A DNA stretch of 64,000 bases from Bdellovibrio sp. (GCA_036676395.1 JAKFCY010000002.1:2016001-2080000), one strand, 5' to 3'. Numbered from the stretch's first letter, positions 23,231 to 43,270 are shown. Notes: a model not told the origin generated them from the letters alone. A program made the numbers and translations.

Positions 23231-23250
23231 AACACCACCGGTTTATTTTT

Positions 23251-23718: not shown

Positions 23719-23817
23719 GCAAGTGCTGCTCCAAGGCCAGACCATGATAAATTTGTTTAGAAGTTATTTTTTTGACAACGTGGCTTAACTTAGAAGTTTT
23801 TAATGACAAGATGGCGT
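23719..23817 (-). promoter_or_regulatory. sigma54 promoter plus paired upstream activator boxes
   Basis: Minus strand TGGAGCAGCACTTGC (GG at 23732-31); boxes TTGACAACGTGGCTT (23772-86) and ATGACAAGATGGCGT (23803-17). Confidence 0.7.
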
Positions 23818-23828
23818 GATTAATTTTT

Positions 23829-24650
23829 TTAAGGACAAACTAAAACAGGCACATTCGCTGAACGGATGACTTTACTTGCAACACTTCCAAGCGTTGGAAA
23901 TCTACTGCTCTTGTCGCGCGGTGCAACAGCAACTAAATCGAAATTTTTAGCTCGGTTAACGACTTTATCAACCACATCACCTTTTTCTCTGACTGCTTTA
24001 AGGTGGGGATGGCTTTTTTGAAACTGCTTAAAATTAAACTCGTCGCCTGACATGATTTCACCATAAACATTAGTCCATTCAGGATAATCAAACATATACA
24101 CGGGCACGTGCGCCACATGATAAATCTCTAATTCTGATTTGAAGATATGACTAAATTTATCGACCTGATTCAAAATATGATCGGTTTGAGTTCCAAGATC
24201 AGACGGAACCAGAACTTTTTTCGGCAATATAACTTTGGCGCCACGATGAATCCAAACCGGAAATGGAGATTTTGTTGCCAGCCACTCAGCTGTGCTACCC
24301 AGAAAAAAATTTAGAATTGGGCTGAATCCCTTATGGCCGACCATAATCATTGGGTCTGCAAATTTCTTAGCTGCAGCAATCACTTGTTTAGCCGGATAAC
24401 CGTAGCGAATAATAATGTTGTCAGTGTCACCAAGATCATAGGTGGCTTTGATTTGATCGACTAAAGTTTTTCGTAAATCTTTTTTAGCCCCATGAATGGC
24501 ATAATCAAATTCAAAGGCATGAACATAAGTCACTGGCACTTTCATTTCATGGCCAAGTTTTTGGGCTTCTTTAACAACAAGTCTTGAGTAGTCAGACAAA
24601 TCCAGGGCGACGATAAGATTTTTAATACTTTTTAGCGGGCTTTTTTTCAT
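23829..24650 (-). CDS. Universal stress protein, paralog 2
   Basis: LIVALDLSDYS, VGHKG...FFLGSTAE and LGSVASKVIRSA motifs. Confidence 0.9.
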   Translation of the reverse strand: MKKSPLKSIKNLIVALDLSDYSRLVVKEAQKLGHEMKVPVTYVHAFEFDYAIHGAKKDLRKTLVDQIKATYDLGDTDNIIIRYGYPAKQVIAAAKKFADPMIMVGHKGFSPILNFFLGSTAEWLATKSPFPVWIHRGAKVILPKKVLVPSDLGTQTDHILNQVDKFSHIFKSELEIYHVAHVPVYMFDYPEWTNVYGEIMSGDEFNFKQFQKSHPHLKAVREKGDVVDKVVNRAKNFDLVAVAPRDKSSRFPTLGSVASKVIRSANVPVLVCP

Positions 24651-24660
24651 GACGTTTCTC

Positions 24661-25665
24661 CTAAATTGATGAAACTGTTTTAGATTGCGATACAGAACCT
24701 TCGAGTTGAAATTCTTTAATACTTTCTAGAGTTGTTTGCGCGATATGCGCTAGAGCTTCCTGAGTCAGGAAAGCCTGATGCGAAGTGACCAACACATTGG
24801 GAAAAGTCAGAAATCTTGCCAAAGTATCATCTTGCAAAACTTTATTAGAAAGATCATGAAAGAAAACACCTTCTTCTTCTTCGTAAACGTCTAAGCCAGC
24901 TGCGCCAATTTTACCGCTTTTTAAACCGAACAGGAGCGCTTTGCTATCAAGTAGCGCGCCCCGTCCCGTATTTATAATGAAAACACCATCTTTCATTTGT
25001 TCAATTCGGGCGCGATCCAATAGATGATGAGTGCTGGGTGTCAGGGGCACATGAAGTGAAATAATATCTGATTCTTTAACCAAGGTCTCTAAATCGGTGT
25101 ACGTGACGACCCCATCTTTTTCAAGATCAGTATCAACTTTGATATCATAAGCTAATACTCGGCACCCAAAACCTTTCATTATATGACACATAACTTGACC
25201 GATGCGTCCCGTACCGACAATACCAATTGTTTTACCAAAAAGATCAAAGCCAACTAGCCCATCAAGTGAAAAATTTAATTCTCTGACTCTTGAGTGCGAC
25301 CTGTGAATTTTTCGGTTAAGTGTTAGTAATAGTCCTACTGCAAATTCAGCGACTGCATGTGGAGAATAGGCTGGTACACGCGCAACAACTATTTTGTTTT
25401 GCGCGGCCGTGCTGATATCGACATGATTATAACCCGCTGACCTTAAAGCAATGAGCTTAACTCCCAGCCTGCTTAAAATTTCAATGCACTCGCTATCAAT
25501 TTTATCATTAACAAATGAACATATGACATCGGCATTCTTAGCTAAGAATGCCGTCTTGGCTGTCAGACGTATTTCTAAAAAGTCGATATCGAAATCGAAC
25601 TTTTCATTTATTTTACAAAAAACTTCTTTTTCAAAGCCATGAGTATCAAAAAAAGCAATTTTCAT
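24661..25665 (-). CDS. ldhA: D-lactate dehydrogenase (D-2-hydroxyacid dehydrogenase)
   Basis: RVPAYSPHAVAE, GTGRIG, INTGRG, LDVYEEE and FPNVLVTSHQAFLT motifs. Confidence 0.9.
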   Translation of the reverse strand: MKIAFFDTHGFEKEVFCKINEKFDFDIDFLEIRLTAKTAFLAKNADVICSFVNDKIDSECIEILSRLGVKLIALRSAGYNHVDISTAAQNKIVVARVPAYSPHAVAEFAVGLLLTLNRKIHRSHSRVRELNFSLDGLVGFDLFGKTIGIVGTGRIGQVMCHIMKGFGCRVLAYDIKVDTDLEKDGVVTYTDLETLVKESDIISLHVPLTPSTHHLLDRARIEQMKDGVFIINTGRGALLDSKALLFGLKSGKIGAAGLDVYEEEEGVFFHDLSNKVLQDDTLARFLTFPNVLVTSHQAFLTQEALAHIAQTTLESIKEFQLEGSVSQSKTVSSI

Positions 25666-26306
25666 TTAGCGACCTCTTTAGTTTTACTGCAAGCTGGTAA
25701 AAATGGACTGACCGTTTTTACGGCCCTGTAGATTTTTTCTGAAAAAAAATCTTCGCTCGAAATTTGGTGATATTTAGGATGGTTTTTCCAAACCTCATGA
25801 ATTTTATGATCAATAAGAATGGCTGCCTCTGCTGTTTCAATTCTTTGGGGATTATGATGATTATAGTCTTTCACTGCCGGCGCCCGCAGGTGAATCACGG
25901 CTTCATACTTGGCGTATTCTTTTTCTTTAGTTGTATTTAAACTTTTAAAAAAGTCATCTTCTGATCCTGGCCAGTACGCCAGGCCATCAAGGCTTCCGCG
26001 GTCGCACAATCCTAATGACCAACGTTTTTCTTCTTTAAACATAGTCTCTAATTCTTTTTGTACTTCAAAAATAGCACGTTGTGCCGATCGTTCACCGGTG
26101 ACGCCAGAAATTCTCCAAAATCCACCGCTAAATAAAATGCTGGCAGCCTCTGGAAGTATTGCCACATGCTCACAAAAAATTTTTCTAAAAAATTCTAAAA
26201 CGGCAGTTTTTCCGGCGCCTGGTCCGCCGGTCAAAACGATAAGACGCGGAGGCTGTTCAACAGCACCGGAACAAGGTCGGTCACAATTGTAAACTTGTTG
26301 GTTCAT
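25662..26306 (-). CDS. AAA_28/NadR-like P-loop NTPase
   Basis: VLTGGPGAGKT, PEAA and CDRGSLDG motifs. Confidence 0.85.
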   Translation of the reverse strand: MNQQVYNCDRPCSGAVEQPPRLIVLTGGPGAGKTAVLEFFRKIFCEHVAILPEAASILFSGGFWRISGVTGERSAQRAIFEVQKELETMFKEEKRWSLGLCDRGSLDGLAYWPGSEDDFFKSLNTTKEKEYAKYEAVIHLRAPAVKDYNHHNPQRIETAEAAILIDHKIHEVWKNHPKYHQISSEDFFSEKIYRAVKTVSPFLPACSKTKEVAK

Positions 26307-26309
26307 AAA

Positions 26310-27674
26310 CTACTCCAAATGAAATTTTTCACCGTGTTCAGGAACATGACAATTCCAACCAAAGGTTTCTGTAATTCGTCGACGCAAATCATCCGCCGCC
26401 GAAGCTTCGCCATGAGTAATAAATACTTTTTTGGGGTTAATATTCGACTTCTGAAGCCAGCCAAGAATTTCAGAATAATCTGCGTGTGCAGAAACATTAT
26501 CTAACATTTTAATTTGAGCATTAACCTGAATATATTCACCATGAACTTTAACTTCTTTAGCCCCGTGCTCTAAAGCTTCACCACGGGTACCGGCAGCTTG
26601 GTATCCAGTCAGTAAAATCGTATTATTAGGATCAGAAGCAAATGCTTTTAAGTGATGTAATACTCTGCCGCCGCCTAACATTCCGCTGGCAGAAATAATT
26701 AACATTGGCCCAGACCTTTCGTTGATCTTAATTGATTCTTCAGCCGAACGTACATATTTAACGAGGTTACAGACATCATAACATTCTTCGAGCGATAATT
26801 TGTGCAAGCCTTTATACTTACGTAAAAGTTCATTCACGTTGGTCGCCATAGGACTATTTAAATACATCGGCATATTTGGAATTCGGTTTTTTAGCCGTAA
26901 CTGCCAAATACAGTACATCAATGATTGCGAACGCCCGACCGCAAATGCCGGAATTAGAATAACGCCTTTTTTATTATACGTTTCATTAATGACCTCGGCT
27001 AATTCGTCAAGAACGTCAGTCTTATTATGTAAACGATTTCCGTAAGTTGATTCTGTAACCAGATAGTCAACACTTTCCATTTTTTCTGGCGGATATAATA
27101 AATGGTCTTGCGAGCGGCCTAAATCACCAGAAAAACCAATCGATCTGCCCGAGACATTTACGATGACCGAAGCAGCCCCTAAAATGTGCCCGGCATACTT
27201 AAACTTGAAACTTAAGGTATCATCAATTTTATAGGAATCATTAAAATCAACGCCGACAAAGTACTCCAGCGAGTGAGTCGCATCCTCGCTTGTAAACAAC
27301 GGCAATGCAGGGCTGTGTTTTGATTTTTTATATCTATTTAAATACTCGGCCTCTTCTTCCATCAGAAACCCAGCATCCGGTAAAAGAATTTTACAAAGAT
27401 CTTTGGTTGCATGAGTACAAAATATTTTTCCGCGAAATCCCATTTTTATCAGCCGCGGAATATAACCTGAATGATCAATATGGGCATGGGTCAAAATCAC
27501 CGCATCGATTTCTGATGCCTTGATTGGCAGTTCATTCCAGTTTTTTAAGCGCAGCGATTTTAAACCCTGAAAAAGGCCGCAGTCGATAAGAATTTTTTTA
27601 TGTTTAAAGCTGAGCAAATACTTTGAACCTGTTACGGTTCCGGCACCACCCAGAAAGTGTAGATCAAATGCCAT
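26310..27674 (-). CDS. MBL-fold beta-CASP ribonuclease-family protein
   Basis: GTVTGS, DCGLFQG, THAHIDH, AGHILG, SGDLG, ESTYG, PAFAVGR and SAHAD motifs. Confidence 0.92.
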   Translation of the reverse strand: MAFDLHFLGGAGTVTGSKYLLSFKHKKILIDCGLFQGLKSLRLKNWNELPIKASEIDAVILTHAHIDHSGYIPRLIKMGFRGKIFCTHATKDLCKILLPDAGFLMEEEAEYLNRYKKSKHSPALPLFTSEDATHSLEYFVGVDFNDSYKIDDTLSFKFKYAGHILGAASVIVNVSGRSIGFSGDLGRSQDHLLYPPEKMESVDYLVTESTYGNRLHNKTDVLDELAEVINETYNKKGVILIPAFAVGRSQSLMYCIWQLRLKNRIPNMPMYLNSPMATNVNELLRKYKGLHKLSLEECYDVCNLVKYVRSAEESIKINERSGPMLIISASGMLGGGRVLHHLKAFASDPNNTILLTGYQAAGTRGEALEHGAKEVKVHGEYIQVNAQIKMLDNVSAHADYSEILGWLQKSNINPKKVFITHGEASAADDLRRRITETFGWNCHVPEHGEKFHLE

Positions 27675-28404
27675 TAAGACCTCCTGTAATTAAAGACGAT
27701 ATACCCATTGCTAGTACAAAATATAAAACAGCCCTGCGAAAATGCTGTGTAGAAATTTTTTTTAAAACTTTTTTACCTAACCAATTTGCTATGACAACCA
27801 CGACCATAAAAATTGGAATGTAAAAATAATGATCTGCCGTCAAATAACCTTTTTTTAAATAAATGAAAAGTCTGACGATATCACCGCCGAAGTCGATTAA
27901 ACTTGAAGTTGCGACGAAAGCCACAGGGCTAAGATTAAAAGCAGTCATTGCCAGTGTTCGCACCGCTCCGCCCGACCCAAGTAATCCAGTTAGTAGGCCT
28001 GAAATCGCACCGCCGATGTAGGGAATCCAGCGGCCAGAAAAAACCTCATCTTTGTTAATGAATAAAAAATAGATAGATAACAAGGTCAAGAATAGACCTA
28101 ATATTATAGAGTGAATACTTTTGGGTAAAAAATCTGAATATTCGGCACCTAACCCAGAAAATAAAATCGCTGGCAGTCCAAACTTAAACGTCAGACTCCA
28201 ATTAATCTCTTTTCTATAAGAAATAGTACGAACTGAATTACCTAAAACATGTAGGACTGCAGTCAGCGCTAAAGTGATCTTTAGCGGCTCGACAAGCAAA
28301 GCCAACGGCACAAATAATGCCGAAGTACTTACGCCGCTGACCGAACCGACCAGTTCTGAAATAAAGGCAATAACAATAAAATAAAACTCATTCAAATGAC
28401 TCAT
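27664..28404 (-). CDS. TauE/SafE-family membrane transporter
   Basis: About 8 TM segments; GLLGSGGAVR motif. Confidence 0.75.
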   Translation of the reverse strand: MSHLNEFYFIVIAFISELVGSVSGVSTSALFVPLALLVEPLKITLALTAVLHVLGNSVRTISYRKEINWSLTFKFGLPAILFSGLGAEYSDFLPKSIHSIILGLFLTLLSIYFLFINKDEVFSGRWIPYIGGAISGLLTGLLGSGGAVRTLAMTAFNLSPVAFVATSSLIDFGGDIVRLFIYLKKGYLTADHYFYIPIFMVVVVIANWLGKKVLKKISTQHFRRAVLYFVLAMGISSLITGGLNGI

Positions 28405-28430
28405 CGAAATAGCCGCCGTGGGTTAATCCT

Positions 28431-29615
28431 CTATTTTTTATCTAACTTAATAACGCCTTTAGTGTTGATAAGTTTTTGCAAAGACTCTAATTCATCTTTC
28501 ACATCGCCAGGCAAATTCGTGCCAGCAGAACCAGAATAACTGAAGATCATTTCTTTTTCATATTCGCTATAACATTTTTTAGCTATAGGTAAATCCGGAT
28601 ACTCAGTGACACATTCTTTAAGATAAAGATCGGCTAAAGAATAAAAAAAGTTATGATTAATCATGCGATCACTCACTGCAAGCCAGTAAAGGATTTCAGG
28701 TGTCGCTTTCAATTTTGGATGTGTGAAAAGATATTCATACAATATACCTGACGTGTATAAATGTGTTACCAAGTCTGGCCCGTAAGATTGATTATTTGCC
28801 TTTGCAGCTTTGGGATCAAGACGTGTGCGGGCAAATTTTAGAATTTCTTTTTCGCTTGCAGTTCTTGGGTCGATAGTATGATCTAATTGCCAGTTTTTAA
28901 ACTGTAAAATCCAATTATCGATATCTCGTAAAGTGGTTTCAGTTAAGTTTTGGACTTTTTTATATTTTTCAAATTTTTTAATGGCCTCTTTGGGATTACG
29001 CTTAATACGGCTGTAGTAAGCAACTTGACGTTCAAGGGCTTTTTCAACTTCAAATTTATCATCAAATTTTAGATTTCTATTGATGATTTTATCATAAAGA
29101 GCCGAAGCCTTGTCAAAATCATGGGTGGCAAACAAGAATTCAGCCTGTTCAAATTCAGAAAAATAACTTTCTTGTTTAGTGAATTCAAAAAATGTTCTGT
29201 TTCCTGATGGCATTTGTGAATGACAACTCATGCACACTGATAAAGTTGAATTCAGCATCCAGCGTGAAAAGTTTTTATTTCCTTTATCAAAAACTCTGGC
29301 TGTTTCCTGAATGTGATTTTCTAAAACTCGCTGCGAGAACTTAAAATTATCATGCTTAAGAATTGGATCATGACCGGCCGCTTTTGCCGCCTTAGCAAAA
29401 CTATTCAAATGCTGAGAAATCTCGACAGAGTTTTTTGGATCACTAAACTTTTTATCCGAAACTGAATATTTTTTCAGATATTTAAGCTCTTCAAAAAACT
29501 GACGCATTATAACTGGAGTAGAAGTTTCTGCTTCAGAACTCCAAGAAAAACAACCAATTGACACAAAAACTAATGTGTTTATTAAAATATGTAACATGCT
29601 CCCCCTCTTTGACAT
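28431..29615 (-). CDS. Exported mono-haem c-type cytochrome with a TPR-like helical region
   Basis: Signal peptide and a single CMSCH motif; real start may be ATG 29597 (GAGGGGG RBS). Confidence 0.7.
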   Translation of the reverse strand: MSKRGSMLHILINTLVFVSIGCFSWSSEAETSTPVIMRQFFEELKYLKKYSVSDKKFSDPKNSVEISQHLNSFAKAAKAAGHDPILKHDNFKFSQRVLENHIQETARVFDKGNKNFSRWMLNSTLSVCMSCHSQMPSGNRTFFEFTKQESYFSEFEQAEFLFATHDFDKASALYDKIINRNLKFDDKFEVEKALERQVAYYSRIKRNPKEAIKKFEKYKKVQNLTETTLRDIDNWILQFKNWQLDHTIDPRTASEKEILKFARTRLDPKAAKANNQSYGPDLVTHLYTSGILYEYLFTHPKLKATPEILYWLAVSDRMINHNFFYSLADLYLKECVTEYPDLPIAKKCYSEYEKEMIFSYSGSAGTNLPGDVKDELESLQKLINTKGVIKLDKK

Positions 29616-30437
29616 TTATGGATAAATTAAAACCGGCTTTTCGCTCGAGCGCACTAACTTGGCATTTACACTACCAAAAATAGGAAAACGCTTTTTAGAA
29701 TTTTTTGGTGTGATTGCGATCAGATCAAACTTTTTTGAATATTGTAGGATATGACTGGCTACGTCTCCGGGATTCTTACTTGTTTTAAGATTCGGATACT
29801 TCGTCTTCATTAATTTTATTTTTTTATCTTCTTCTTTTTTTAAAAAGGTATAAACAGGAACCCAAGCCGAATAATCTAATAAAGGCGTTGGCTCTTCTAA
29901 CACATAATACAATTCAAACTTTCCATTTACTGGTTTACTGAGGAGTTTTACCCCTTCGACCGTGTGATCTGAACTGTGGCTCAGATCAGAGGGCACAAGA
30001 ATATTTTTTGGCACAATAATTTTATGACCACGCTGAATCCAGACAGGAAAAGGAGATTTCTGTGCGATCTTTTCTGCCGTACTGCCAAGAAGCATATTTA
30101 AAAGGCGGCTGTGCCCCTTGTTGCCGACAATGATCATTGGATTAGCGAATTTTTTTGCAAATCCAATGACTTCAGCATCGGCTTTTCCAAACTTTATGCT
30201 GACCTTTGTTTTTTTATCAAGCTTGTAGATTTTATTAATTCTTTCAGTGGTACGCTGAATAATTTCTGTTTTATACGTCGGCGCATACCAATCAACAGGG
30301 CAAACAAATACCAAATTCATCGGTATAGCCATATTCTCGGCCAGCATTTTAGCTTCGCGAACAACTATTTTTGAATAGTCTGAAAGATCAACACCTACAA
30401 TGAGGTTTTTAATTTTTTTGTTTTTCATCGTGCCCAC
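29616..30437 (-). CDS. Universal stress protein, paralog 3
   Basis: LIVGVDLSDYS and GNKGHS...LLGSTAEKI motifs. Confidence 0.9.
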   Translation of the reverse strand: MGTMKNKKIKNLIVGVDLSDYSKIVVREAKMLAENMAIPMNLVFVCPVDWYAPTYKTEIIQRTTERINKIYKLDKKTKVSIKFGKADAEVIGFAKKFANPMIIVGNKGHSRLLNMLLGSTAEKIAQKSPFPVWIQRGHKIIVPKNILVPSDLSHSSDHTVEGVKLLSKPVNGKFELYYVLEEPTPLLDYSAWVPVYTFLKKEEDKKIKLMKTKYPNLKTSKNPGDVASHILQYSKKFDLIAITPKNSKKRFPIFGSVNAKLVRSSEKPVLIYP

Positions 30438-30449
30438 CGTTTGGCTTTT

Positions 30450-30857
30450 TTAAGTGTGAGATCTGGTGACTAAAACCTCTGAAAAAGCTTTAAAGGCATC
30501 AACCTCAGTGAAAATTCCCACAAGCTTTGCGTTATCCATGACAAGCGCACAGCCATATTTTTTTTCAGCCATTTCAGCCAAGACTTCATTTAGCGGTGCA
30601 TCGGGTGTTGTACAATAAGGATCTAAAGTACAGGCGTCTTCAACCATAACTTTTGTAGGATCAACGTCTTTAAAACCAAGAACAAATTTGATGTCGCGAT
30701 CAGATAAGATTCCAACAATTTTACCGTCCTTTAGAACTGGTAAATGTCGGATGTGTAATTTTCTTAAGATCTCAGATGCACTAGCTATAGTTTGATCATA
30801 GCCAATCGATTTTGGAACAAAGGTCATGTATTTCTGTACTTTGGGAATTGCTTTCAT
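30450..30857 (-). CDS. CBS-pair protein
   Basis: IRHLPVL...VGILSDRD and LVGIFTEVD motifs. Confidence 0.9.
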   Translation of the reverse strand: MKAIPKVQKYMTFVPKSIGYDQTIASASEILRKLHIRHLPVLKDGKIVGILSDRDIKFVLGFKDVDPTKVMVEDACTLDPYCTTPDAPLNEVLAEMAEKKYGCALVMDNAKLVGIFTEVDAFKAFSEVLVTRSHT

Positions 30858-30898
30858 GGGTTAGCCTTTCAAGGTTATTGTTGCTGTTAACCAATACA

Positions 30899-31050
30899 AC
30901 AAGAAGTGAGCCACACTCTAATGCAATACAATTGACAACAAAGTTAATTTAATGACAAATTGTCATAGTAGCCCGTGGCGATTAGCCAAGTTGTCATACG
31001 TACCAAAGCCATAAATAGCCTGTTGAATTTGAGATTGGCACTGACTTTGA
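30899..31050. promoter_or_regulatory. Divergent sigma54 promoters sharing two activator boxes
   Basis: Boxes ATGACAAATTGTCAT (30952-66) and TAGCCAAGTTGTCAT (30983-97). Minus promoter TGGCTCACTTCTTGT (GG 30912-11); plus promoter TGGCACTGACTTTGA (GG 31037-38). Confidence 0.72.
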
Positions 31051-31089
31051 AATTACTAATTTGATGTTCATAAAAAAGAGAAATGCCTA

Positions 31090-32487
31090 ATGAAATATAA
31101 AATAGCCGTTGTAGATGATGATGTTGAAATGGGTCGCGTCGTGCACGATCTGCTAGTCGATGCTGGATATATTGTTAATCAATATTCTTCAGCTTCTGAG
31201 GCCCTGGCAAAATTTAAAACTGATTTGCCACAAGTTTTAATCACTGATCATAAAATGAAAGATATTGATGGCTTGATGTTTTTACGTAAAGTCCAGGCTG
31301 ATTATCCCGAAATCGTTTCTATTATGATGACGGCCTTTGGTTCGATCGAAACCGCAATTGAAGCCATGAAGGCCGGCGCTTATCATTATATTGTTAAGCC
31401 TTTTAAAAATGAAGAACTTTTATTGTTAGTACAAAGAGCTACCGAAAGATCAGGACTAAAAAAAGAAAATAAAATTCTTCGCACTGAACTGAATAAAAGT
31501 TTTAAACTTGAATCGGTTGTCGGCAAAAGCCCGGCGATGAATTCTATTTTTGAAATGATAAAATTAGTCAGCAGCGCCACCGCAAATGTTCTTATTTCTG
31601 GCGAAAGCGGTTCAGGAAAAGAAATCGTCGCCAGAGCTATTCATAACTCTGGCGCAAGAAAAAACAAATCTTTTATCCCTCTTAACTGCTCTGCGATTCC
31701 AGAAAACCTTTTAGAAAGCGAACTGTTTGGCCATGTGAAAGGATCTTTCACAGGGGCCCTGACCGACAAAAAAGGATTATTTGAAGAAGCCAATGGAGGC
31801 ACACTTTTTCTTGATGAGATTGGTGATTTAGGCCTACCTCTACAAGCAAAACTATTGCGCGTTCTGCAAGATCAGCAAATTAGACCGGTCGGCAGCAATC
31901 AGTTAAAACAAGTCGACGTTCGTATTATAGCGGCGACGCATCGCGATTTAAAGATCCTCGTTAAAGATGAAAAATTCAGAGAAGATTTATTTTATCGTTT
32001 AAATGTATTACAAATCCGGGTTCCAGCGCTTCGCGAACGTAAAGAAGATATTCCGTTGCTAGTTGAAAGTTTCATTCAAAAGTTTAGCGCCAGAAATAAT
32101 TCTAAAGTAACCGGCATTTCTCCTGAAGCCATGGCCATTCTAATGGCACACCCTTGGCCTGGAAATGTACGAGAACTTGAGAATGTCATAGAGCGTGCGA
32201 TGGTGTTAAGCCGTGGCGAACAAATCGAAAAAAATGTTGTTCTGGATAGCGCTTTAAGCGAAGCCAAAGATACAATAGATCAATTACAGACCGACCGCCC
32301 TACTCTGGAAAAACTAGAAGAACGCTATATAAAATTAGTATTAAGTGAAACCGATTACAAAAAAGATGAAGCCGCCAAAGTTTTAGGACTCAGCCGTCGC
32401 ACACTTTACCGCAAAGAAAGACTTTACGGGATGGTTTCAGAAGATTTGTCTGAAGAAATGGATGAAAATGATCACTCTAACAAATGA
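31090..32487 (+). CDS. NtrC/AtoC-family sigma54 enhancer-binding response regulator
   Basis: REC domain, [42 protein letters not shown] and a Fis-type HTH. Confidence 0.95.
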
Positions 32488-33619
32488 AGGTTTATCCTCG
32501 AAGACTTTCGCACATCTTAAATCAGCTATCGACGAAGCGGCGATTGTGGCTATTACCGACAAACAGGGGCTTATTACCTACGTTAATAAAAAGTTCTGTG
32601 ATATTTCTCAGTATTCAAGAGAAGAACTGATTGGCAAAACTCATCAGATTATTAATTCTCATTACCATCCCAAAGAATTTTTTTTAGAAATGTGGAAAAC
32701 AATTTCTCAAGGTACCGTATGGGAAGGCGAAGTACGTAACCGCGCTAAAGACGGTAGCGTTTATTGGGTTAATACAACCATTGTTCCTTTTCTAGACGCT
32801 GATGGAAAACCAGAACAATACGTCGCGGTTCGATATGAAATTACCAAAAGCAAACAATTTGAAGAACAATTAAAAATTTATGCGAAAAAACTTGAGGTCA
32901 GCAACAAAGAACTTCAAGATTTTGCCTCGGTGGCTGCACATGATTTACAAGAACCACTCAGAAAAATTCAGTCTTTCTCAGATCGACTTGTAACTAAAGC
33001 CAAAGAACAACTGACTAAAGAAACCTTTGACTATGTTGATAGAATCCAGAATTCGGCCCACCGAATGCAAGTCTTGATTGATGATCTACTTACCTATTCA
33101 CGCGTGACCACAAAAAACGCACCCTTCTCTGTGATTAATTTAAATGACATCATCGCCCAAGTTGTTTCAGATCTTGAAGTTCGAATTGAACAAAGCCACG
33201 GCAAAGTTGTTTGGCAAAATCTTCCTTCACTAGAAGCTGACCCAACTCAAATGCGTCAGTTATTTCAAAACTTAATCAGCAATGCACTAAAGTTTAAAAA
33301 ATCTGACTTAAACCCATTAGTCACAGTATCTGCTAAGATCTTTGATAACTCACCCCTAGGACGCCCTGGCCCGGCCTGCCAAATCACTATTCAAGACAAT
33401 GGGATCGGTTTCGATGAAAAATACTTAGACCGTATCTTCACTATTTTTCAAAGGTTACATGGTCGCCATGAATACGAAGGCACAGGTATCGGCTTAGCGG
33501 TTTGTCGAAAAATCGTGGACCGCCATGGTGGATTCATTACTGCTGCATCGCTGCCTGATCAGGGTGCTACTTTTATTGTAACATTGCCGTTAAAACAAAA
33601 TTCTGGAGACTCAATATGA
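32462..33619 (+). CDS. Cytoplasmic PAS histidine kinase
   Basis: PAS domain (YVNKKFC...MWKTI...WEGEVRNRAKDG); AHDLQEPLRKI H-box; FQNLISNA and GTGIGL. Confidence 0.92.
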   Translation: MKMITLTNEGLSSKTFAHLKSAIDEAAIVAITDKQGLITYVNKKFCDISQYSREELIGKTHQIINSHYHPKEFFLEMWKTISQGTVWEGEVRNRAKDGSVYWVNTTIVPFLDADGKPEQYVAVRYEITKSKQFEEQLKIYAKKLEVSNKELQDFASVAAHDLQEPLRKIQSFSDRLVTKAKEQLTKETFDYVDRIQNSAHRMQVLIDDLLTYSRVTTKNAPFSVINLNDIIAQVVSDLEVRIEQSHGKVVWQNLPSLEADPTQMRQLFQNLISNALKFKKSDLNPLVTVSAKIFDNSPLGRPGPACQITIQDNGIGFDEKYLDRIFTIFQRLHGRHEYEGTGIGLAVCRKIVDRHGGFITAASLPDQGATFIVTLPLKQNSGDSI

Positions 33620-35534: not shown

Positions 35535-35602
35535 GAAAAACCGTTTTTATTCATGACAAACTGGGCTTTGACGCCATCGCATAATTTCGACATTATGGAT
35601 TT

Positions 35603-36682
35603 ATGAGCTTACCAACTCTTAAAAAGATCATCCATGTCGACATGGATGCATTTTATGCTTCTGTTGAACAGCGTGATCACCCAGAATACAAGGGTAAACC
35701 CGTAGCTGTCGGTTACGCCGGTGCACGCGGCGTTGTGGCTGCGGCCAGTTATGAAGCCCGAAAATTTGGTGTGCGATCAGCTATGGCTTCGGCGACAGCA
35801 CTTCGCAAATGCCCGTCTTTGGTTTTTCTTCCTACACGCTTTGATGTTTACAAATCTATTTCAAAACAAATTCACGAAATTTTTTCTGAATACACTTCAT
35901 TAATTGAGCCTCTTTCGCTTGATGAGGCCTATCTTGATGTTACAGAAAATATTAAAGGCTTAAAATCAGCCACTGTCACGGCTGAAGAAATTCGCCGGCG
36001 TATTTTTGATGCCACCAAACTTACCGCTTCAGCTGGCATTTCATACAATAAATTTTTAGCTAAGATTGCCTCTGATATTAAGAAACCTAATGGTCAGTTT
36101 ACAATTCTGCCTTCGCAAGGCGAAGAATTTATTGAAAAACTAAAGATCGAAAAATTTTATGGTATTGGCCCTGTAACTGCAAAAAAAATGAAAGGCTTAG
36201 GTATTCATAACGGGGCTGATCTTAAAAAACAGTCGCTGCTATTTTTAAAAACTCATTTTGGAAAAACCGGTGAATGGTATTATGCCATCGCCCGCGGTGA
36301 AGATGATCGCCGCGTTGAGCCAGACCGCCCGCGCAAATCATACAGTTCTGAAAATACTTTTGCCGCTGATTTATTTGAACAGGCTGAGGTTACTAAAGAA
36401 GCTTTAAAGTTGATGGATGAAGCCTGGCTCTGGAGTGAAAAAAATAAAATCTTTGGCCGAACCGTGACGATTAAAATTAAATTCAGCGATTTTAAACAGA
36501 TTACACGTTCTCGCAGCCTTACTGTTCAAATTGACTCCAGAGACGTCATTGAAAAATTAATTATAGAATTAATTCAAGGAATATTTCCGCTGGAGTTAGG
36601 CATTCGTTTAATCGGTGTAGGTCTTTCAAACTTTGATCATATTGAAGAAGAAATTACAAGTCAGTTAAGTCTTCTTACTTAA
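35603..36682 (+). CDS. dinB: DNA polymerase IV
   Basis: HVDMDAFYASVEQ, SYEARKFG, SLDEAYLD and KFLAKIASD motifs. Confidence 0.95.
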   Translation: MSLPTLKKIIHVDMDAFYASVEQRDHPEYKGKPVAVGYAGARGVVAAASYEARKFGVRSAMASATALRKCPSLVFLPTRFDVYKSISKQIHEIFSEYTSLIEPLSLDEAYLDVTENIKGLKSATVTAEEIRRRIFDATKLTASAGISYNKFLAKIASDIKKPNGQFTILPSQGEEFIEKLKIEKFYGIGPVTAKKMKGLGIHNGADLKKQSLLFLKTHFGKTGEWYYAIARGEDDRRVEPDRPRKSYSSENTFAADLFEQAEVTKEALKLMDEAWLWSEKNKIFGRTVTIKIKFSDFKQITRSRSLTVQIDSRDVIEKLIIELIQGIFPLELGIRLIGVGLSNFDHIEEEITSQLSLLT

Positions 36683-39600
36683 CTTTGACACAAACTTTCG
36701 ATTTTGGATGCAGTTCGCAAAGTGCTGATTTTAGTTCGGCAGCTTGCGATTCGGCTTTAATCGCTCGCGAAGAAGCGTCTTCAGCAATATTTCTAAGTTG
36801 AGCATTTTCAGCCTTTATCTTAGCAATCTCTGAGTGAATCTCATGCGAATCGTGAAACCAGACACTGTAGAACTCTTTCAATGCATTGATCAGAAGGGGA
36901 ATAATTTCAACGTACTTAACACCTAACATGCCGTTGGATTTTCGCTCAATCGCTTCAGGTAAAACTTTTTCAACGTCTTGGGCAATCACACCCACGCGAC
37001 GAGGAGCAGACTCAGAATCAGTGTTGTAAAGATAAGTCATCCCATTTAGCTGCAGAGCTTTTTCAAGAGCTGATTCAATCGGGCGAATATGTTTTTTAAG
37101 ACGGCGATCAGAGTTAGCAGCCCAACTTGTACCACCGTTACTCATCCACTGCCCCGTGCCTGAGCCATTGTAAATAATAAAGCTTCCAGTTCCACCTTCA
37201 GGCCCGACTGACCACGAAGCCGTTGGATTCGATAACTTAAGTGGCGTACCGCTCGAATGAGCATGTAAAATTGCTCCCGGATTAGTAAGGCCAATACCAA
37301 CCTCACCAGTTGAGTGCTCGACATAAACCTTACCGTCAGCAAGATAAACATCACCACTGGCATTGTTTACACTCATTGGTCTTAAAGTATTCCACGTGCC
37401 ATACTGATTTCCTGAAGCTGTTAACAGTGGCATATAGGTATTAACGCCATCATTTCTGATCATGGCTGCGTAATTGCCGCCAATAGCCCGAAAATTCGCA
37501 TAGGTGCCTAGTGCCGCAACGACTTCGCCATTTACATCCAACTTTTGTTGCGGTGATGTTTTACCTATACCGACATTACCACCAGCGTCTTGTAAAACTA
37601 AGGCCTGACTCACGTTCGAACCAATTGACATAAAAGCATTTGCTGGGGTGGCGTTATAAGTCCATTTAATACGTCCACGATTGGTCGCATCTTGTCCTAA
37701 TGTAAATAGAGTATTTGCGTTTGCACTTCCAAGAGTTATTGAACTAAGAGGATTTGCCATTGCACCTAAATCTGCACCAACAGAAAGAATATTTGCAGGC
37801 GATGATGTACTCACACCGACATAACCGGCCGGAGTAATAACCATCGAAGGGTTAACATGACCGGAGTTTACACCATTTTGATCTGCATTTAAGTATAAAT
37901 AACTTAACGTACTGCTTGTAGCCAGAGCACCAAAGCTACCAAGTTTTGAACCACCATAACCTAAAGAAAACTCTCTGGCCCAGCTTCCAGAGTATGTATT
38001 TGAAGTATCAATATACGCGCCATATGTTGGACCACTGTACCCTAACCGAACTGCACCACCTGAAGTTCCCGCACTAATATCTAGCTGTGCAGCAGGTGCC
38101 GTCGTACCTATTCCGATGTTACCTGAACTTCCGGCAATAAATAATCTTGTCGTGTCGTTCGCAAACAAATGAAAATTATTTAAATTTTTTGTTCCTAAGA
38201 ATAAATCAGCTTCGGCGGCAATGGTATTTCCATCGAAGTTAAGTGAAGTTCCTGAGGCTTCTTGCACACGCATGACAGCGTTGTTTAAATTCAGCGAGCC
38301 CACTGAGCCCATCGTTGTGGATTCTAAAACATGAAGTCTTGTGGCTGGCGCGGACGTACCAATACCGACATTACCCGGAGATCGAATGACCATCCATTCT
38401 TTATCCAGAGAATCAGTTGTGGTGTGCCCACGAAAAACAAAGCCCCCATCAGTAGCTCCACTAGTTGAATTGCCATCCTGCATTTCTAAAACTATTGCAT
38501 CCAGGTTTGAACCGAAATAATTCGAATCACCCAACAGCCTAAACCCCTCGCCCATATTTGCAAAAATATTACCTGCAACATGTAGTTTTTCAGATGGCGC
38601 TGCTGTACCAACACCGACATCACCGGTTATGTAATTTATGCTAGTTCCAGAAGTATTCCATTGCGAAGATGTAAATGATCCACTCGCAGCTGGTGTATAA
38701 CCAAGTGCTGTAGTCACATCACCTGCGGCTAATGCTGCTGATGAAGTTACGCGCCCTTTAGCATTAACTGTTACTTTTGTGTATGTACCGGCCGTGACGC
38801 CACTGTTAGACAATACCAGTGTATTACTTGCCGCAGCTTTTGTTACATCACCTATGTAGGCCGGAGTTCTTGCAATAGCCAATGTTCCTGTTGCAGAAGC
38901 TGAACCTAAATCTATTGTTGAAGCCGTAGCAAATGTTCCTAATCCTAAATTTGTTCGTGCGGCCACGCTTGAAGCCAGATCACTTAAGTTATTGGCCTTG
39001 ACTAAATAATTTCCAAGAGCAGTTGCGCTTGCTGGCACATAACCTAGCACCTGCGCAACTGAGGCTGCGCTAGAAGTGATTTTATTACTAAACGTTGTAT
39101 AATCTGTATTTGATAAAAGACCCGCAGTTACAGAACCTGCCGAAGCTAATGGAATATTTAATCTATGGATTCCATTAGTTGTTACAAATGCCGGGGCAGT
39201 GCCCGTAGTTCCGTTTGCAAAACTTTGTGTTGCACTTGCTGAACCATTTAATGATTGCAGACCTTCACCCGATACGCCAAAGGCTGCCCAGGTTGTGCCA
39301 TCACAAAATTCTACATTGCCTGCGTTATAACGTAAGGTACCTGCGTAACTGACAGCACATATTGCTGATTCCATACTGATCTTTACACCACCACTGACAA
39401 CTAACTTTGTCACCGGAGCTGTAGTGCCAATGCCCACATTGCCTGTTGAAGTAATGCGAATTTTTTCTGTTCCCGAAGTTGAAAAACCTAATTCATTACT
39501 GCCACCAGAAGAATTTGGATTAAACATTCCCGTATCAGAATCCACATTAAACGCATACGAAGGCTGAGCTGCATTACCACCGGTAAAATAAATTTGCGGA

Positions 39601-42600
39601 CCCGCGCCCCCGGCATTAAAACTTAAACTGGAGCCAGACCAAGTTCCTTTAAGCGCACCTGCTACAGAAAAACCTAAATATCCGCCGGCATTGTACAGAC
39701 CTGTATTTGGATCACTTGCAAAAGTGATTGATGGCGAATTAAATGCGCCGTTACCTGCATATAGTTTATTTACTTTGACTGTACCGCTAACGTCTAAAGT
39801 TTGTGATGGATTAACTACACCAAGACCAACATTGCCTGTGTTATAAAATATAGACGTTGCACTTGTTGTCCATTGCGAAATTGTGAATGATCCACTTGCA
39901 GCTGGTGTATATCCAAGTGCCGTGGTTACATCACTTGATGCTAATGCCGCTGATGATGTTACACGGCCTTTTACATCGACTGTTACTTTTGTATATGTTC
40001 CGGCCGTAACACCGCTGTTAGATAACACCAGAGTATTACTGGCTGCTGCTTTTGTTACATCACCTGTATAACCTGGAGTTCTTGCAATTGCCAAAGTTCC
40101 TGTTGCACTTGCTGAACCTAAATCTATTGTTGAAGCCGTAGCAAATGTACCTAACCCTAAATTAGTTCGCGCTGCCGCATTTGAAGTAAGATCACTTAAG
40201 TTATTTGCTTTTACTAAATAACTTCCAAGTGCTGTTGCACTTGCTGGCACATAACCTAGCACCTGCGCAATAGATGCAGCTGATGAAGTAATTTTTCCTG
40301 CGAAATTTGCATAATCTGCATTTGAAATTAAGCCAGCCGTTGTTGTTCCCACCGATGCGAAAGGAATATTTAATGTATGAATTCCATTCAGCGTAGCAAA
40401 CCCAGGGGCAGTGCCCGTAGTTCCGTTTGCAAAACTTTGTGTTCCACTTGCTGAACCATTTAACGATTGAAGACCTGCACCTGATACCCCAAAGGCTACC
40501 CACGTTGTGCCATCACAAAATTCTACATTGCCAGCGTTATAACGTAATGTACCTGCGTAACTGACAGCACATGTTGCTGACTCCATACCAATGCGTAACC
40601 CACCATTCACATCTAATTTTGTAACTGGTGAACTCCAGCCAATACCGACATGACCTGTGTCAGCTAACTTCAAATAACCCGCGATATTTTGTAATTGCAC
40701 AGCGCCCGAAGTATGTTGCGAGTATATAGTAAAAGCTTTACTGCCTGCCGTTGGATACCCTACATAACCAGTGCGCATCGTAGAGCTTGCAGCGTGGGTA
40801 TAGAATTCTAAATAACCATGATCTGCCGGTGCGGTATTAAAAGCTGCAATGGCAGGAGCATTACTTTGCACATCTAATCTTCGCGTTGGATTGCTCGTTC
40901 CAACACCCATGTTGCCTGACAGGTTTATAGTAACCAGAGGCGTTGCTAAACCACGAGTTGTGCCGCTGGCATAAAATCTAAAACCGCCACTCGCGTCACC
41001 ATTAGAATCTGCGATAAATTCAACATAACCAGTATCGCGTATTAAAGTACCTGAGCCATCCCAAATAATATCGCGCGGAATGGTTGTAGAGTTGGGTATC
41101 AAACCTATACCTTTACCGCTTGTTGCAATTCTAATATCTCCATTCGCAACTTCAAGCCGCGATTCTGGTGATGCTGTTCCAATGCCGACATTGCCAGCTA
41201 TGTAATTTATTGTAGTTCCCGAAGTATTCCATTGCGACGAGGTAAACGATCCACTCGCTGCTGGTGTATAACCAAGAGTCGTAATAATCGCCGCACTTGT
41301 AGCCGCTTGTTTATTATTAAAAATATTCCAGTCACTTGCTGATAAATATCCGTTATCAGTTGAATTAGCTTGCGCGATGGACAATGTCGGATTTGAACCA
41401 CCGGTGCTGCTGATCGGACCAGTTACTGTAATTGAAGCCACTGTGCCGCTGGCTCCAGCATCAAAAACACAAGCAAAGCCTGAACCATTAAAAGTTATGT
41501 AATGATTGCCCGCACAAGTTGGAATACTGCGGTTCACATATTTTGAACCATCATATTGAAGAATGTCATTCGCTGTTAAGCTGCTCACCGTGACCGATAC
41601 CCCTTGGATACGATTCACAGTGATGTTTGAAATAATTCCTGAAATATCTCCGGCAAAAGCTGAAGTTGTGCTTAAAACTGTATTTGGTAAGTCAGACAAC
41701 AATAATGTAGTGGCTCCGCTGGTTACGCGGCCCTTGTTGTCTGTGATAACTTTGAAATAAGTTCCGGCAGTTCCGATGTTAGCTAATCCCAGCGCTGGCG
41801 TAGATCCACCCGTTGAAGTGATTTCATTCAAAGTGCCTGACACACTGGTCACCGCACCAGTTGCTGAATCTATCCAAGATAAATTTCCAGTTCCATCAGT
41901 CGATAAGACTTGCCCTGTGGTACCACTGGTTGCTGGTAAAATTAAAGTGTAATTTGCACTCAGGCTTGTTGGCGCCTGCAGTCTGATGTTAAAACTTGTA
42001 CTTGGTTTGTAAATATCAACGTAATTGGTTTTTGTGCTATTTGCAAAAATATCATTTGCGGTGAAGTTTCCTGAACTATCACGTCTTACTAATGTGTTAA
42101 CAGAATTTGCCGCAGAAGCTACGGCATCAATTTGCGCCGTCACTGCCGCACCGCTGACTGGAGCATAACCTAATGTAGTTATAATTTCTGTACTGCTTGC
42201 ACCAAGCTTTGTTTTAAATTCGGCATAATCCAGAGATGTTAAATATCCATCATTTGACATTGATGCGGCCATGATACTGATCACCGGCGCTGATGCTGTT
42301 CCACCTGTAGTCAAAACCGTTCCGCTTGTGGTTACACTTGAAATTCCGCTGCTGCTTACACCAACTGGAATACAACTAAAACTAACACCGTTAAATTTAA
42401 TGGCTTCATTACTTTGGCAGCTGAGCGAAGCTAATGATGAATATTCAACAAACTCTGAATCAGATTTTCCGTTAAGTAGAGTTGTGTTTCCAGCCTTAGC
42501 GGCATACATCGCATAAGGTACCGCATTGATGGCCATTGCCGGCAATGTTTGCCAGCCGCTACTGTCTTGAAATTGCATCACAATTTTTCTAGCATCAGTC

Positions 42601-42959
42601 GCCGTCGGATTATAAATTCCTGGCGATTGACACGGAAATGAAACTGTCGAGTTATCAAACACTGATGCAAATGTTGTTGCACTGACTGGATACGATCTGG
42701 TTCCTGCGCCGAGGGTAAATGAAATAAGGCCGCCAGTACCAGTCATGTTTACTGCTGCATAATTTTCAACGTATAAAACACAAGAGGCCGCAGGGTCTAA
42801 AATTGTAAATCGAAAATTAACATTAGCCGCTTCAAGAGGATAGCCATCTGGCTTAACAATTTTGGCCTGGTATGTTGTACGTAATGGAGTGGCAAGCACC
42901 AGCGTTGCTGACAATAAAATAGCCGTAGATAGAATGATTTTTACGAGCTGACGAACCAC
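36675..42959 (-). CDS. Large trimeric fibre adhesin with a C-terminal S74 chaperone (Bdellovibrio MAT-like)
   Basis: Signal peptide, TYQAKI...VPYA N-domain, many GNVGIGTxxP repeats, C-terminal SDRRLK...GVIAQDVE...Y..IIPLLINALKE and a coiled coil. Confidence 0.88.
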   Translation of the reverse strand: MVRQLVKIILSTAILLSATLVLATPLRTTYQAKIVKPDGYPLEAANVNFRFTILDPAASCVLYVENYAAVNMTGTGGLISFTLGAGTRSYPVSATTFASVFDNSTVSFPCQSPGIYNPTATDARKIVMQFQDSSGWQTLPAMAINAVPYAMYAAKAGNTTLLNGKSDSEFVEYSSLASLSCQSNEAIKFNGVSFSCIPVGVSSSGISSVTTSGTVLTTGGTASAPVISIMAASMSNDGYLTSLDYAEFKTKLGASSTEIITTLGYAPVSGAAVTAQIDAVASAANSVNTLVRRDSSGNFTANDIFANSTKTNYVDIYKPSTSFNIRLQAPTSLSANYTLILPATSGTTGQVLSTDGTGNLSWIDSATGAVTSVSGTLNEITSTGGSTPALGLANIGTAGTYFKVITDNKGRVTSGATTLLLSDLPNTVLSTTSAFAGDISGIISNITVNRIQGVSVTVSSLTANDILQYDGSKYVNRSIPTCAGNHYITFNGSGFACVFDAGASGTVASITVTGPISSTGGSNPTLSIAQANSTDNGYLSASDWNIFNNKQAATSAAIITTLGYTPAASGSFTSSQWNTSGTTINYIAGNVGIGTASPESRLEVANGDIRIATSGKGIGLIPNSTTIPRDIIWDGSGTLIRDTGYVEFIADSNGDASGGFRFYASGTTRGLATPLVTINLSGNMGVGTSNPTRRLDVQSNAPAIAAFNTAPADHGYLEFYTHAASSTMRTGYVGYPTAGSKAFTIYSQHTSGAVQLQNIAGYLKLADTGHVGIGWSSPVTKLDVNGGLRIGMESATCAVSYAGTLRYNAGNVEFCDGTTWVAFGVSGAGLQSLNGSASGTQSFANGTTGTAPGFATLNGIHTLNIPFASVGTTTAGLISNADYANFAGKITSSAASIAQVLGYVPASATALGSYLVKANNLSDLTSNAAARTNLGLGTFATASTIDLGSASATGTLAIARTPGYTGDVTKAAASNTLVLSNSGVTAGTYTKVTVDVKGRVTSSAALASSDVTTALGYTPAASGSFTISQWTTSATSIFYNTGNVGLGVVNPSQTLDVSGTVKVNKLYAGNGAFNSPSITFASDPNTGLYNAGGYLGFSVAGALKGTWSGSSLSFNAGGAGPQIYFTGGNAAQPSYAFNVDSDTGMFNPNSSGGSNELGFSTSGTEKIRITSTGNVGIGTTAPVTKLVVSGGVKISMESAICAVSYAGTLRYNAGNVEFCDGTTWAAFGVSGEGLQSLNGSASATQSFANGTTGTAPAFVTTNGIHRLNIPLASAGSVTAGLLSNTDYTTFSNKITSSAASVAQVLGYVPASATALGNYLVKANNLSDLASSVAARTNLGLGTFATASTIDLGSASATGTLAIARTPAYIGDVTKAAASNTLVLSNSGVTAGTYTKVTVNAKGRVTSSAALAAGDVTTALGYTPAASGSFTSSQWNTSGTSINYITGDVGVGTAAPSEKLHVAGNIFANMGEGFRLLGDSNYFGSNLDAIVLEMQDGNSTSGATDGGFVFRGHTTTDSLDKEWMVIRSPGNVGIGTSAPATRLHVLESTTMGSVGSLNLNNAVMRVQEASGTSLNFDGNTIAAEADLFLGTKNLNNFHLFANDTTRLFIAGSSGNIGIGTTAPAAQLDISAGTSGGAVRLGYSGPTYGAYIDTSNTYSGSWAREFSLGYGGSKLGSFGALATSSTLSYLYLNADQNGVNSGHVNPSMVITPAGYVGVSTSSPANILSVGADLGAMANPLSSITLGSANANTLFTLGQDATNRGRIKWTYNATPANAFMSIGSNVSQALVLQDAGGNVGIGKTSPQQKLDVNGEVVAALGTYANFRAIGGNYAAMIRNDGVNTYMPLLTASGNQYGTWNTLRPMSVNNASGDVYLADGKVYVEHSTGEVGIGLTNPGAILHAHSSGTPLKLSNPTASWSVGPEGGTGSFIIYNGSGTGQWMSNGGTSWAANSDRRLKKHIRPIESALEKALQLNGMTYLYNTDSESAPRRVGVIAQDVEKVLPEAIERKSNGMLGVKYVEIIPLLINALKEFYSVWFHDSHEIHSEIAKIKAENAQLRNIAEDASSRAIKAESQAAELKSALCELHPKSKVCVKVK
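38610..40655 (-). repeat. Internal ~0.83-kb direct repeat (copies ~38610-39445 and ~39820-40655, period 1212 bp)
   Basis: TCACAAAATTCTACATTGCC at 39301 and 40513; near-identical peptide CAVSYAGTLRY...GYTPAASGSFT. Ends approximate. Confidence 0.9.
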
Positions 42960-43180
42960 ATATACATATCGGTATAGAATGAAAATTCCATAATGACCTC
43001 TGTCGATTTTCTGAGCGAAAAAAGCATATTTTTTTAAATTATTTCTTATTTAAATGTTTCAACTTGATACAACTGGGCTAGCTACCCACCGACGCCATTT
43101 AAAAACTTAGGAAGAGCAACAGAAATGCCATGGCTGTAATCCAATTTATCTGATTCTCAGGTGCTCAAAATTTGAAAGTC

Positions 43181-43270
43181 GTGACAACCTGTCATTTGCT
43201 CATGACAAAGTGGCTGACTTTTCTAACGAGAATCATTTTATTCAACTTTTAACATGGCGGTAGTTTTGAA
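43181..43270 (+). promoter_or_regulatory. Paired activator boxes and sigma54-like promoter for the cbb3 operon
   Basis: GTGACAACCTGTCAT (43181-95), ATGACAAAGTGGCTG (43202-16) and TGGCGGTAGTTTTGA (GG 43256-57). Confidence 0.68.

Follow-up and report, generated by a model that had tools for sequence, protein, structure and literature searches.

Which regulator is served by the short palindromic boxes that lie in pairs ahead of a cbb3 oxidase operon, a CBS-domain and universal stress protein (USP) operon and the gene of an NtrC-family response regulator in a Bdellovibrio sp., and which signal would that regulator convey? The boxes and their promoters lie between positions 23,719 and 43,270 of a stretch of 64,000 nucleotides (nt), referred to below as the window (GCA_036676395.1, JAKFCY010000002.1:2016001-2080000, one strand, 5′ to 3′), and coordinates are those of the window unless another contig is named. 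A sequence-only reading had assigned them to a sigma-54/NtrC regulon under the activator encoded at 31090, an assignment that is supported in silico by comparative box pairs and by the presence of rpoN. With a probability of roughly 0.65, the six boxes are enhancer sites of this activator (31090-32487), which would drive five sigma-54 promoters when oxygen or redox falls.

Box pairs and their promoters

The six boxes are found in three pairs beginning at 23772/23803, 30952/30983 and 43181/43202, exactly where the sequence-only reading had placed them. None of them is assigned to a strand:

23772..23786, no strand: box 1a, TTGACAACGTGGCTT, proximal to P1
23803..23817, no strand: box 1b, ATGACAAGATGGCGT, distal, 31 base pairs (bp) from 1a
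30952..30966, no strand: box 2a, ATGACAAATTGTCAT, proximal to P2, a perfect palindrome
30983..30997, no strand: box 2b, TAGCCAAGTTGTCAT, reverse complement ATGACAACTTGGCTA, proximal to P3, 31 bp from 2a
43181..43195, no strand: box 3a, GTGACAACCTGTCAT, proximal to P5
43202..43216, no strand: box 3b, ATGACAAAGTGGCTG, proximal to P4, 21 bp from 3a

The 15-bp pattern originally proposed is matched to the letter by three of the six boxes (30952, 30983 on the minus strand, and 43202), the other three being one base off. Common to all six is TGACAA-NN-TGKC, the core of which can also be written GMCA-N3-TGKC. The underlying site is a 13-bp palindrome, TGACA-N3-TGTCA (ideal form TGACAAnTTGTCA), which is perfect at 30952 and 43181; in each of the remaining four boxes one half-site departs from the ideal, the bases concerned being mostly the K (T/G) position and the outermost one. 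The spacings of 31, 31 and 21 bp, centre to centre, were reproduced and correspond to three, three and two helical turns.

Measured against background, the box stands out in pairs more than as a single site. The strict core has 19 matches in the 3.4-Mb genome versus about 13 expected from base composition, while pairs of strict cores number three in the whole genome, all of them in this region. The looser palindrome GMCANNNTGKC occurs at 127 sites and forms six pairs within 120 bp, about 0.6 being expected by our own arithmetic; three of these six are the region's own.

Beside the pairs lie the following promoters:

23719..23733, minus: P1, TGGAGCagcacTTGC, sigma-54-like, 39 nt from box 1a, facing a gene of 138 amino acids (aa)
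30899..30913, minus: P2, TGGCTCacttcTTGT, sigma-54-like, 39 nt from box 2a, facing the CBS gene
31036..31050, plus: P3, TGGCACtgactTTGA, sigma-54-like, 39 nt from box 2b, facing the activator gene
43255..43269, plus: P4, TGGCGGtagttTTGA, sigma-54-like, 39 nt from box 3b, facing ccoI
43116..43130, minus: P5, TGGCATttctgTTGC, a canonical sigma-54 promoter, 51 nt from box 3a, facing a 2094-aa gene

In all four of P1-P4 the distance from the proximal 15-mer to the GG is 39 nt, and each carries TGG-N8-TTG, an element with a frequency of 3.2e-4 per position per strand in this genome. Four such elements at one offset would arise by chance with a probability of about 1e-14, or about 1e-12 when 100 offsets are allowed. 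The sigma-54 consensus is TGGCAC-N5-TTGCW, in which GG and GC stand ten bases apart. GG is present in five of the five promoters and GC in two (P1 and P5); P2 has GT at this place, P3 and P4 have GA. The four promoters P1-P4 had been taken as the full set, and P5 (43116-43130) had been missed. Because its TGGCA-N6-TTGC type is so rare, with only 34 copies in the genome, and because it lies so near a box pair, a chance origin of P5 is unlikely.

In the spacers of the three intergenic regions a scan for sigma-70-like -35/-10 pairs, an alternative that the sequence-only reading had named, returned no site, the single match (23652-23624, minus strand) lying within the 138-aa gene. No Rfam family reached its gathering score between 18000 and 51000, and a riboswitch or other RNA element was rejected on this null result together with the palindromic, paired nature of the boxes.

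The 39-nt gap, described earlier as invariant, is held at all four promoters within the own genome only; orthologous promoters have gaps of 40, 41, 49-51, 61, 82, 94, 104 and 107 nt. Among 24 box-to-GG gaps measured across genomes, 12 fall at 38-41 nt and five at 49-51 nt, with single instances at 53, 61, 62, 82, 94, 104 and 107 nt. The Rayleigh statistic R of these gaps reaches its maximum at a period of 10.5-11 bp (R 0.67-0.77 for the 14 distinct values, p about 1e-3 to 1e-5), while no significant value was obtained at 9, 10 or 12 bp. The clustering of values near 40 + 10.5n (38-41, 49-51, 61-62, 82, 94, 104) indicates that activator and promoter may be helically phased. With its sites as close as about 70 bp ahead of the start, the activator would depend on the face of the helix, and this would explain a gap quantised at about 40 + 10.5n.

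Some further features of these promoters were observed. At the activator gene the -12 element reads TTGA, TTGT or TTGG in eight of eight genomes (including 31036-31050 here, and loci L003-L007, L076 and L077) and TTGC in none, so that the deviation from GC is a conserved one. Weakened -12 elements can permit basal, activator-independent transcription. At ccoI the predicted start from P4 (about 43281) lies just ahead of the ATG at 43284, which is probably the true start codon of the gene rather than 43254. In all three genomes with a sigma-54 promoter at ccoI (this one, G021 at locus L038 and G044 at L040) the likely ATG lies 13-14 nt past the -12 dinucleotide, and a ccoI transcript from such a promoter would be nearly leaderless. 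The ccoI genes of the FNR type in G058 and G060, discussed below, have a normal leader.

Elsewhere in the genome, a further intergenic box pair lies on contig C3 (585302-585349, boxes at 585302/585335), 33 bp apart and with TGGCCAcagtcTTGC 88 nt off; the pair faces a gene of 128 aa, behind which lies one resembling SelD (a name given by eye from the beginning of the gene), and is possibly a weak extra member of the regulon. On contig C2, a lone palindrome at 1622813, TTGACAGCTTGTCGA, lies between two divergent TGGCAC-type promoters at gaps of 51 and 59 nt, facing two genes whose products, about 490 aa long, begin with what resembles a signal peptide by eye. C2:2604161 is another candidate site.

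The activator, its kinases and the predicted regulon

The box pair 2a/2b stands directly ahead of a run of four signalling genes on the plus strand, named by position or architecture after the NmpRSTU system of Myxococcus xanthus:

31090..32487, plus: NtrC-family response regulator and enhancer-binding protein, NmpR-like (REC, AAA+, HTH_8)
32462..33619, plus: soluble PAS-HisKA-HATPase kinase, NmpU-like in position
33616..34083, plus: receiver-only protein, NmpT-like in position
34083..35534, plus: hybrid kinase REC-PAS-HisKA-HATPase, NmpS-like in architecture

The activator carries the Pfam domains Response_reg (residues 5-114), Sigma54_activat (144-309, E 3.7e-71), AAA_lid_14 and HTH_8 (405-442), and the end of its gene overlaps the start of the PAS kinase gene. 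Its sigma-54 contact loop reads GSFTGA, as it does in 10 of 14 relatives, four having GAFTGA instead; GSFTGA is also found in seven of the ten activator loops located in the own genome, and we infer the serine variant to be functional. The genome has one rpoN (PF04552 match at E 4.2e-64 in a 497-aa open frame) and, among the 18 matches to PF00158 listed, 12 strong ones. An identity as NtrX was rejected, the score against NF051870 being 381 bits versus a cut-off of 600. No NCBIfam equivalog reached its cut-off for the activator, the best being AtoC (457 versus 714).

For the kinase encoded at 32462, Pfam returned PAS domains only and no haem protoglobin domain. The PAS domain matches 3EWK_A at E 5e-49, Aer (8DIK) at 3e-20 and NifL (2GJ3) at 3e-13. 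According to parts of PMC9668731, 3EWK is the FAD-binding redox sensor PAS-A of Methylococcus MmoS, a His, an Asn and an Arg of the flavin pocket are common to Aer and MmoS, and redox state is what flavin PAS sensors, Aer and NifL among them, respond to. Identical residues are aligned at these three places in the 32462 kinase, for which a flavin cofactor is predicted.

The genes downstream of the promoters are arranged as follows:

18479..23667, minus: predicted P1 operon
23829..30857, minus: predicted P2 operon
43284..50393, plus: cbb3 operon (P4), with ccoI (P-type ATPase), fused ccoNO, ccoP, ccoG and DsbD_2
36675..42959, minus: 2094-aa tail-fibre-like gene with Gp34_trimer and Peptidase_S74 domains

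The P1 operon would comprise, in order, the 138-aa secreted YB1M-like protein (23251-23667, its nearest Atlas clusters bearing the YB1M beta-sandwich family), an M4-like peptidase, proteins of 144 and 206 aa, TrhP (U32), the chorismate mutase CM_2 and HGLS. The label TrhP, a prephenate-dependent tRNA hydroxylase, comes from NCBIfam, which also matches UbiU/V, the anaerobic-ubiquinone proteins of the U32 family; the prephenate-dependent route of TrhP is the oxygen-independent one. The TrhP gene is followed by the overlapping chorismate mutase gene (19285-20836, minus), and the mutase would supply TrhP's prephenate from the same predicted operon. Secreted YB1M-like beta-sandwich proteins were also observed downstream of box pairs in four genomes (the homologues at L064, L069, L054 and L067). 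The P2 operon would run from a CBS-pair protein through a tandem USP, a 394-aa CxxCH protein, TauE, a beta-CASP RNase, AAA_28 and a D-2-hydroxyacid (lactate) dehydrogenase to a second tandem USP. The 2094-aa gene is possibly a fifth target, via P5; its GTG start is overlapped by a 16-codon small open frame with a good ribosome site.

On the reading preferred here, the activator would bind the boxes as dimers. By analogy with Nmp, the flavin-PAS kinase (U-like) would under oxidising conditions phosphorylate the receivers of the S-like hybrid kinase and of the T-like protein, the hybrid kinase being held off; on a drop in oxygen or redox, the hybrid kinase would instead phosphorylate the activator, which could then form a ring on the paired sites and remodel the sigma-54 holoenzyme. 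Its predicted targets are ccoI-ccoNO-ccoP-ccoG from P4, CBS-USP-394aa-TauE-RNase-AAA-LdhA-USP from P2, the YB1M-like protein, peptidase, TrhP and chorismate mutase from P1, the activator operon itself from P3, which would amount to autoregulation, and perhaps the tail-fibre-like gene from P5.

Conservation, control of cbb3 and rival explanations

Conservation was examined in 60 genomes of the family besides the own genome (61 with it), in which G and L codes denote genomes and loci. Orthologues of the activator at 70-78% identity are present in six of the 60, followed by a second tier at about 50-55%; the best paralogue in the own genome reaches 47%. In five of the six close-orthologue genomes (G058, G021, G060, G003 and G044, with G033 left out) the CBS and activator genes point away from each other, and the order activator, kinase, receiver, hybrid kinase is kept in eight of nine close loci. 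Box pairs sought in the orthologous intergenic regions were indeed present: between the activator and CBS genes a 31-bp pair occurs in G058, G021, G044, G060 and the metagenome-assembled genome at L077, while G003 and L076 have just one good box there.

Pairs also precede other orthologous members. They stand ahead of ccoI with canonical promoters in G021 (TGGCAT-N5-TAGC) and G044 (TGGCAT-N5-TCGC), ahead of a CBS homologue in G017 (73% identity), ahead of homologues of the YB1M-like 138-aa protein in G058 (61%) and G017 (66%, followed by an M4-like homologue), and ahead of a homologue of the 394-aa protein in G044. TGGCA(C/T) at -24 is kept in the orthologous promoters. A scan for palindromic pairs across the 61 genomes yielded 30 pair sites in 17 genomes versus eight sites in seven genomes for the reversed control; it superseded a narrower, oriented pair pattern, which gave only the activator-gene pairs and one ccoI pair. 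Pairs in G037 (L060), G015 (L062) and G048 (L052) fall within open reading frames and are probably chance occurrences, and at those in G050 (L056) and G014 (L070) no promoter passed our filter. In G002 and G043, which belong to the same genus as the own genome and whose best activator matches reach 49% and 45%, the family scan found no box pair.

Activators of about 50% identity in other genera (L009-L031) have a single GAGACA-N3-TGTCTC or GGGACA-N3-TGTCCC beside their own gene, and a PAS kinase similar to that of 32462 lies nearby, often divergent. These loci may represent a simpler, two-protein version of the system.

The control of the cbb3 operon differs among relatives. In G058 (same genus, L037) and G060 (L036), ccoI is directly preceded by a Crp/Fnr-family gene, whose product has N-terminal cysteines, and by a TGAT-N4-ATCA palindrome, both in the position taken by the boxes in the own genome; no boxes were found upstream of ccoI in these two genomes. 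Regulators of the FNR type sense through an iron-sulphur cluster and activate sigma-70 promoters as class II regulators. A query with the FNR-like protein gave a close match in G043 (46% identity) and none at E 1e-20 in G021, G044, G003 and G002. At ccoI of G003 neither boxes, a sigma-54-like promoter nor an FNR feature was found. In the own genome the best FNR-like match (33% identity) is without N-terminal cysteines and is surrounded by sulphur genes. Where ccoI has boxes (the own genome, G021 and G044), the FNR-like gene is absent, and where that gene stands beside ccoI there are no boxes, in what are small numbers. Within one genus the cbb3 operon appears to be placed under either an FNR-like regulator or the box activator.

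A Crp-family regulator without FNR-type cysteines (16640-17284) was also observed between 14552 and 18288 of the window, amid sulphur-handling genes named by eye: a rhodanese, two YeeE/YedE-like proteins, a TauE-like protein and a metallo-beta-lactamase-fold protein.

Several points weigh against the preferred reading. The cbb3 operon is not a constant member, boxes being present at ccoI in three of the six close-activator genomes examined (the own genome, G021 and G044). About 11 other activators of the same family in the genome could in principle use the boxes, and the DNA specificity of an activator is unreadable from its sequence. The -12 GC is without its C in three of the five own promoters (P2, P3 and P4). 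As to phasing, gaps of 53 and 107 nt are off the 40 + 10.5n series, the promoters counted were chosen by our own pattern filter, and related genomes are non-independent in that count. Oxygen is proposed as the signal from gene content and PAS resemblance, and a flavin PAS reports redox state, not oxygen itself. The comparison with Nmp, finally, is one of architecture, gene order, site layout and predicted regulon, not of sequence orthology.

The rival that survives best keeps the mechanism and exchanges the signal: the relay would respond, in place of oxygen, to stress of a general kind (energy or redox), to stationary phase or to some stage of predatory life, and the oxidase would be an occasional recruit. 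We regard this as unlikely. It is CBS, the YB1M-like proteins and the activator, rather than cbb3, for which boxes recur across several genomes, the fifth promoter faces a tail-fibre-like gene, and flavin PAS domains of the Aer/NifL type report redox state (parts of PMC9668731). The low-oxygen theme proposed at the outset nevertheless agrees with what the genes encode and with a kinase PAS of the FAD type: among the targets are cbb3 with its copper ATPase, a D-2-hydroxyacid dehydrogenase of fermentation, TrhP with chorismate mutase, and CBS with tandem USP, and an M. xanthus regulon of such content is hypoxia-induced, as described in parts of PMC11841059.

A still less probable explanation is that the boxes belong to another regulator, either a different sigma-54 activator or a repressor, and that the 31090 gene is merely one of its targets. 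The 12 strong sigma-54 activator genes would provide candidates, and the similar lone palindrome with divergent TGGCAC promoters at C2:1622813 points the same way. Against this, the box pair accompanies the activator gene in at least five genera, the same-genus genomes G002 and G043, whose best matches are the distant ones given above, are without a box pair, and activators of about 50% identity bear the related GAGACA-N3-TGTCTC next to their own gene and PAS kinase.

That the promoters are not of the sigma-54 type at all, with sigma-70-type promoters controlled from the box by some ordinary activator or repressor and TGG-N8-TTG being another conserved element, is very improbable: three of the five own -12 elements do lack the canonical C, and the sites, whose centre is some 47 nt ahead of GG, are unusually near for an enhancer, but the TGGCA(C/T) -24 is kept in orthologues, canonical GC is found at ccoI of G021 and G044 and at the own P1 and P5, the spacers hold no sigma-70-like -35/-10 pair, and the sole DNA-binding protein encoded beside the boxes is a sigma-54 activator.

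To return to the 31090 activator, a bolder picture can be drawn, which we advance only tentatively. Pseudobdellovibrio-like predators would run a flavin-sensing Nmp relay whose enhancer would be confined to a single helical face, 40 + 10.5n nt away from -24, and which would have displaced FNR at cbb3 in some species. In the genome studied here it would drive a tail-fibre-like prey-contact gene as well, part of the predation apparatus would in this way be gated by respiratory redox state, and the ccoI transcript would be nearly leaderless.

If the preferred reading is true, a sigma-54/NtrC oxygen-limitation relay studied so far only in Myxococcus reaches a second phylum of predatory bacteria, and a flavin PAS in the place of a globin, together with a different operator, would show which of the parts of such a circuit can be exchanged. 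The regulon would be small, with five promoters in 25 kb and no other strict-core box pair in the genome. Its close, helically phased sites would be a handy natural system for studying the reach of enhancer-binding proteins over short distances, the alternation of FNR-like regulator and box activator at cbb3 within one genus would be a compact case of regulator replacement, and there would be a testable handle on how Bdellovibrio-like predators cope with low oxygen.

Comparison with known systems

Full-text searches, with most subscription journals outside their scope, found no sigma-54 low-oxygen regulon described for Bdellovibrio-like bacteria. Among better-known regulators, FNR and FixK have the same output, namely a high-affinity oxidase that is on under oxygen limitation, but they are sigma-70 class II regulators with an iron-sulphur sensor, and the best match in the own genome is without the cysteines. 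In Mycobacterium tuberculosis, DosRST induces a CBS-pair protein and tandem USPs under hypoxia. The predicted regulon shares this content, whereas DosR is a NarL-type regulator of sigma-70 promoters served by haem GAF kinases. USPs of the DosR regulon are also mentioned in PMC11841059.

NtrYX and PlrSR resemble the present system in that an NtrC-family regulator is tied to low-oxygen respiration, including cbb3, in several proteobacteria. NtrX is not known to have a GAFTGA loop or to act through sigma-54, and NtrY is a membrane kinase; here, in contrast, a GSFTGA loop is present and the kinase is soluble. Among solved structures, the nearest to the 32462 PAS (E 5e-49) is the PAS-A domain of MmoS from Methylococcus capsulatus, which binds FAD, and the MmoS/MmoQ/MmoR pathway ends at a sigma-54 activator, MmoR. 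MmoS is, however, a far larger multi-domain kinase of the methane monooxygenase copper switch, with no known regulon in common.

The closest counterpart is NmpRSTU of M. xanthus, which is also the subject of PMC6211767. As described in parts of PMC11841059, NmpR is an NtrC-like, sigma-54-dependent, autoregulated activator that binds paired GCGCA-N5-TGCGC sites, mostly 14-15 bp apart. Its hypoxia-induced regulon comprises the CBS gene that heads its own operon, a USP gene, a P-type ATPase gene with cbb3 genes, hemN with a hemerythrin gene, the nmpUTS operon and pilR, all of them upregulated. Of its partners, NmpU is a soluble kinase with a globin domain, NmpT consists of receiver domains only, and NmpS is a hybrid kinase whose receiver lies at the N-terminus; in the model given there oxygenated NmpU holds NmpS off, while in hypoxia NmpS phosphorylates NmpR.

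Both systems have an NtrC-like activator that works with sigma-54 and has its own operon as a target (both as predicted here), paired palindromes about two to three helical turns apart from centre to centre, and four components in the order of an activator R followed by U-T-S. Both also have a CBS gene beside the activator gene, USP, a P-type ATPase followed by cbb3, and an oxygen-independent enzyme, which is HemN there and TrhP here. They differ in the sensor, a flavin-type PAS here versus a protoglobin in M. xanthus, and in the operator, TGACA-N3-TGTCA versus GCGCA-N5-TGCGC. The T-like protein has one receiver domain versus two in NmpT, the S-like hybrid kinase has an extra PAS domain, the CBS gene is divergent here versus being first in the activator operon, no pilR link was seen, and the phylum here is Bdellovibrionota. 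Taken together, the sequence-only claim of a new counterpart to FNR, RegA and DosR control has to give way, since NmpRSTU is already such a regulon (parts of PMC11841059): a sigma-54/NtrC oxygen-limitation regulon is already known in Myxococcus, and it is the flavin-PAS sensor, the operator and the phylum that are new here.

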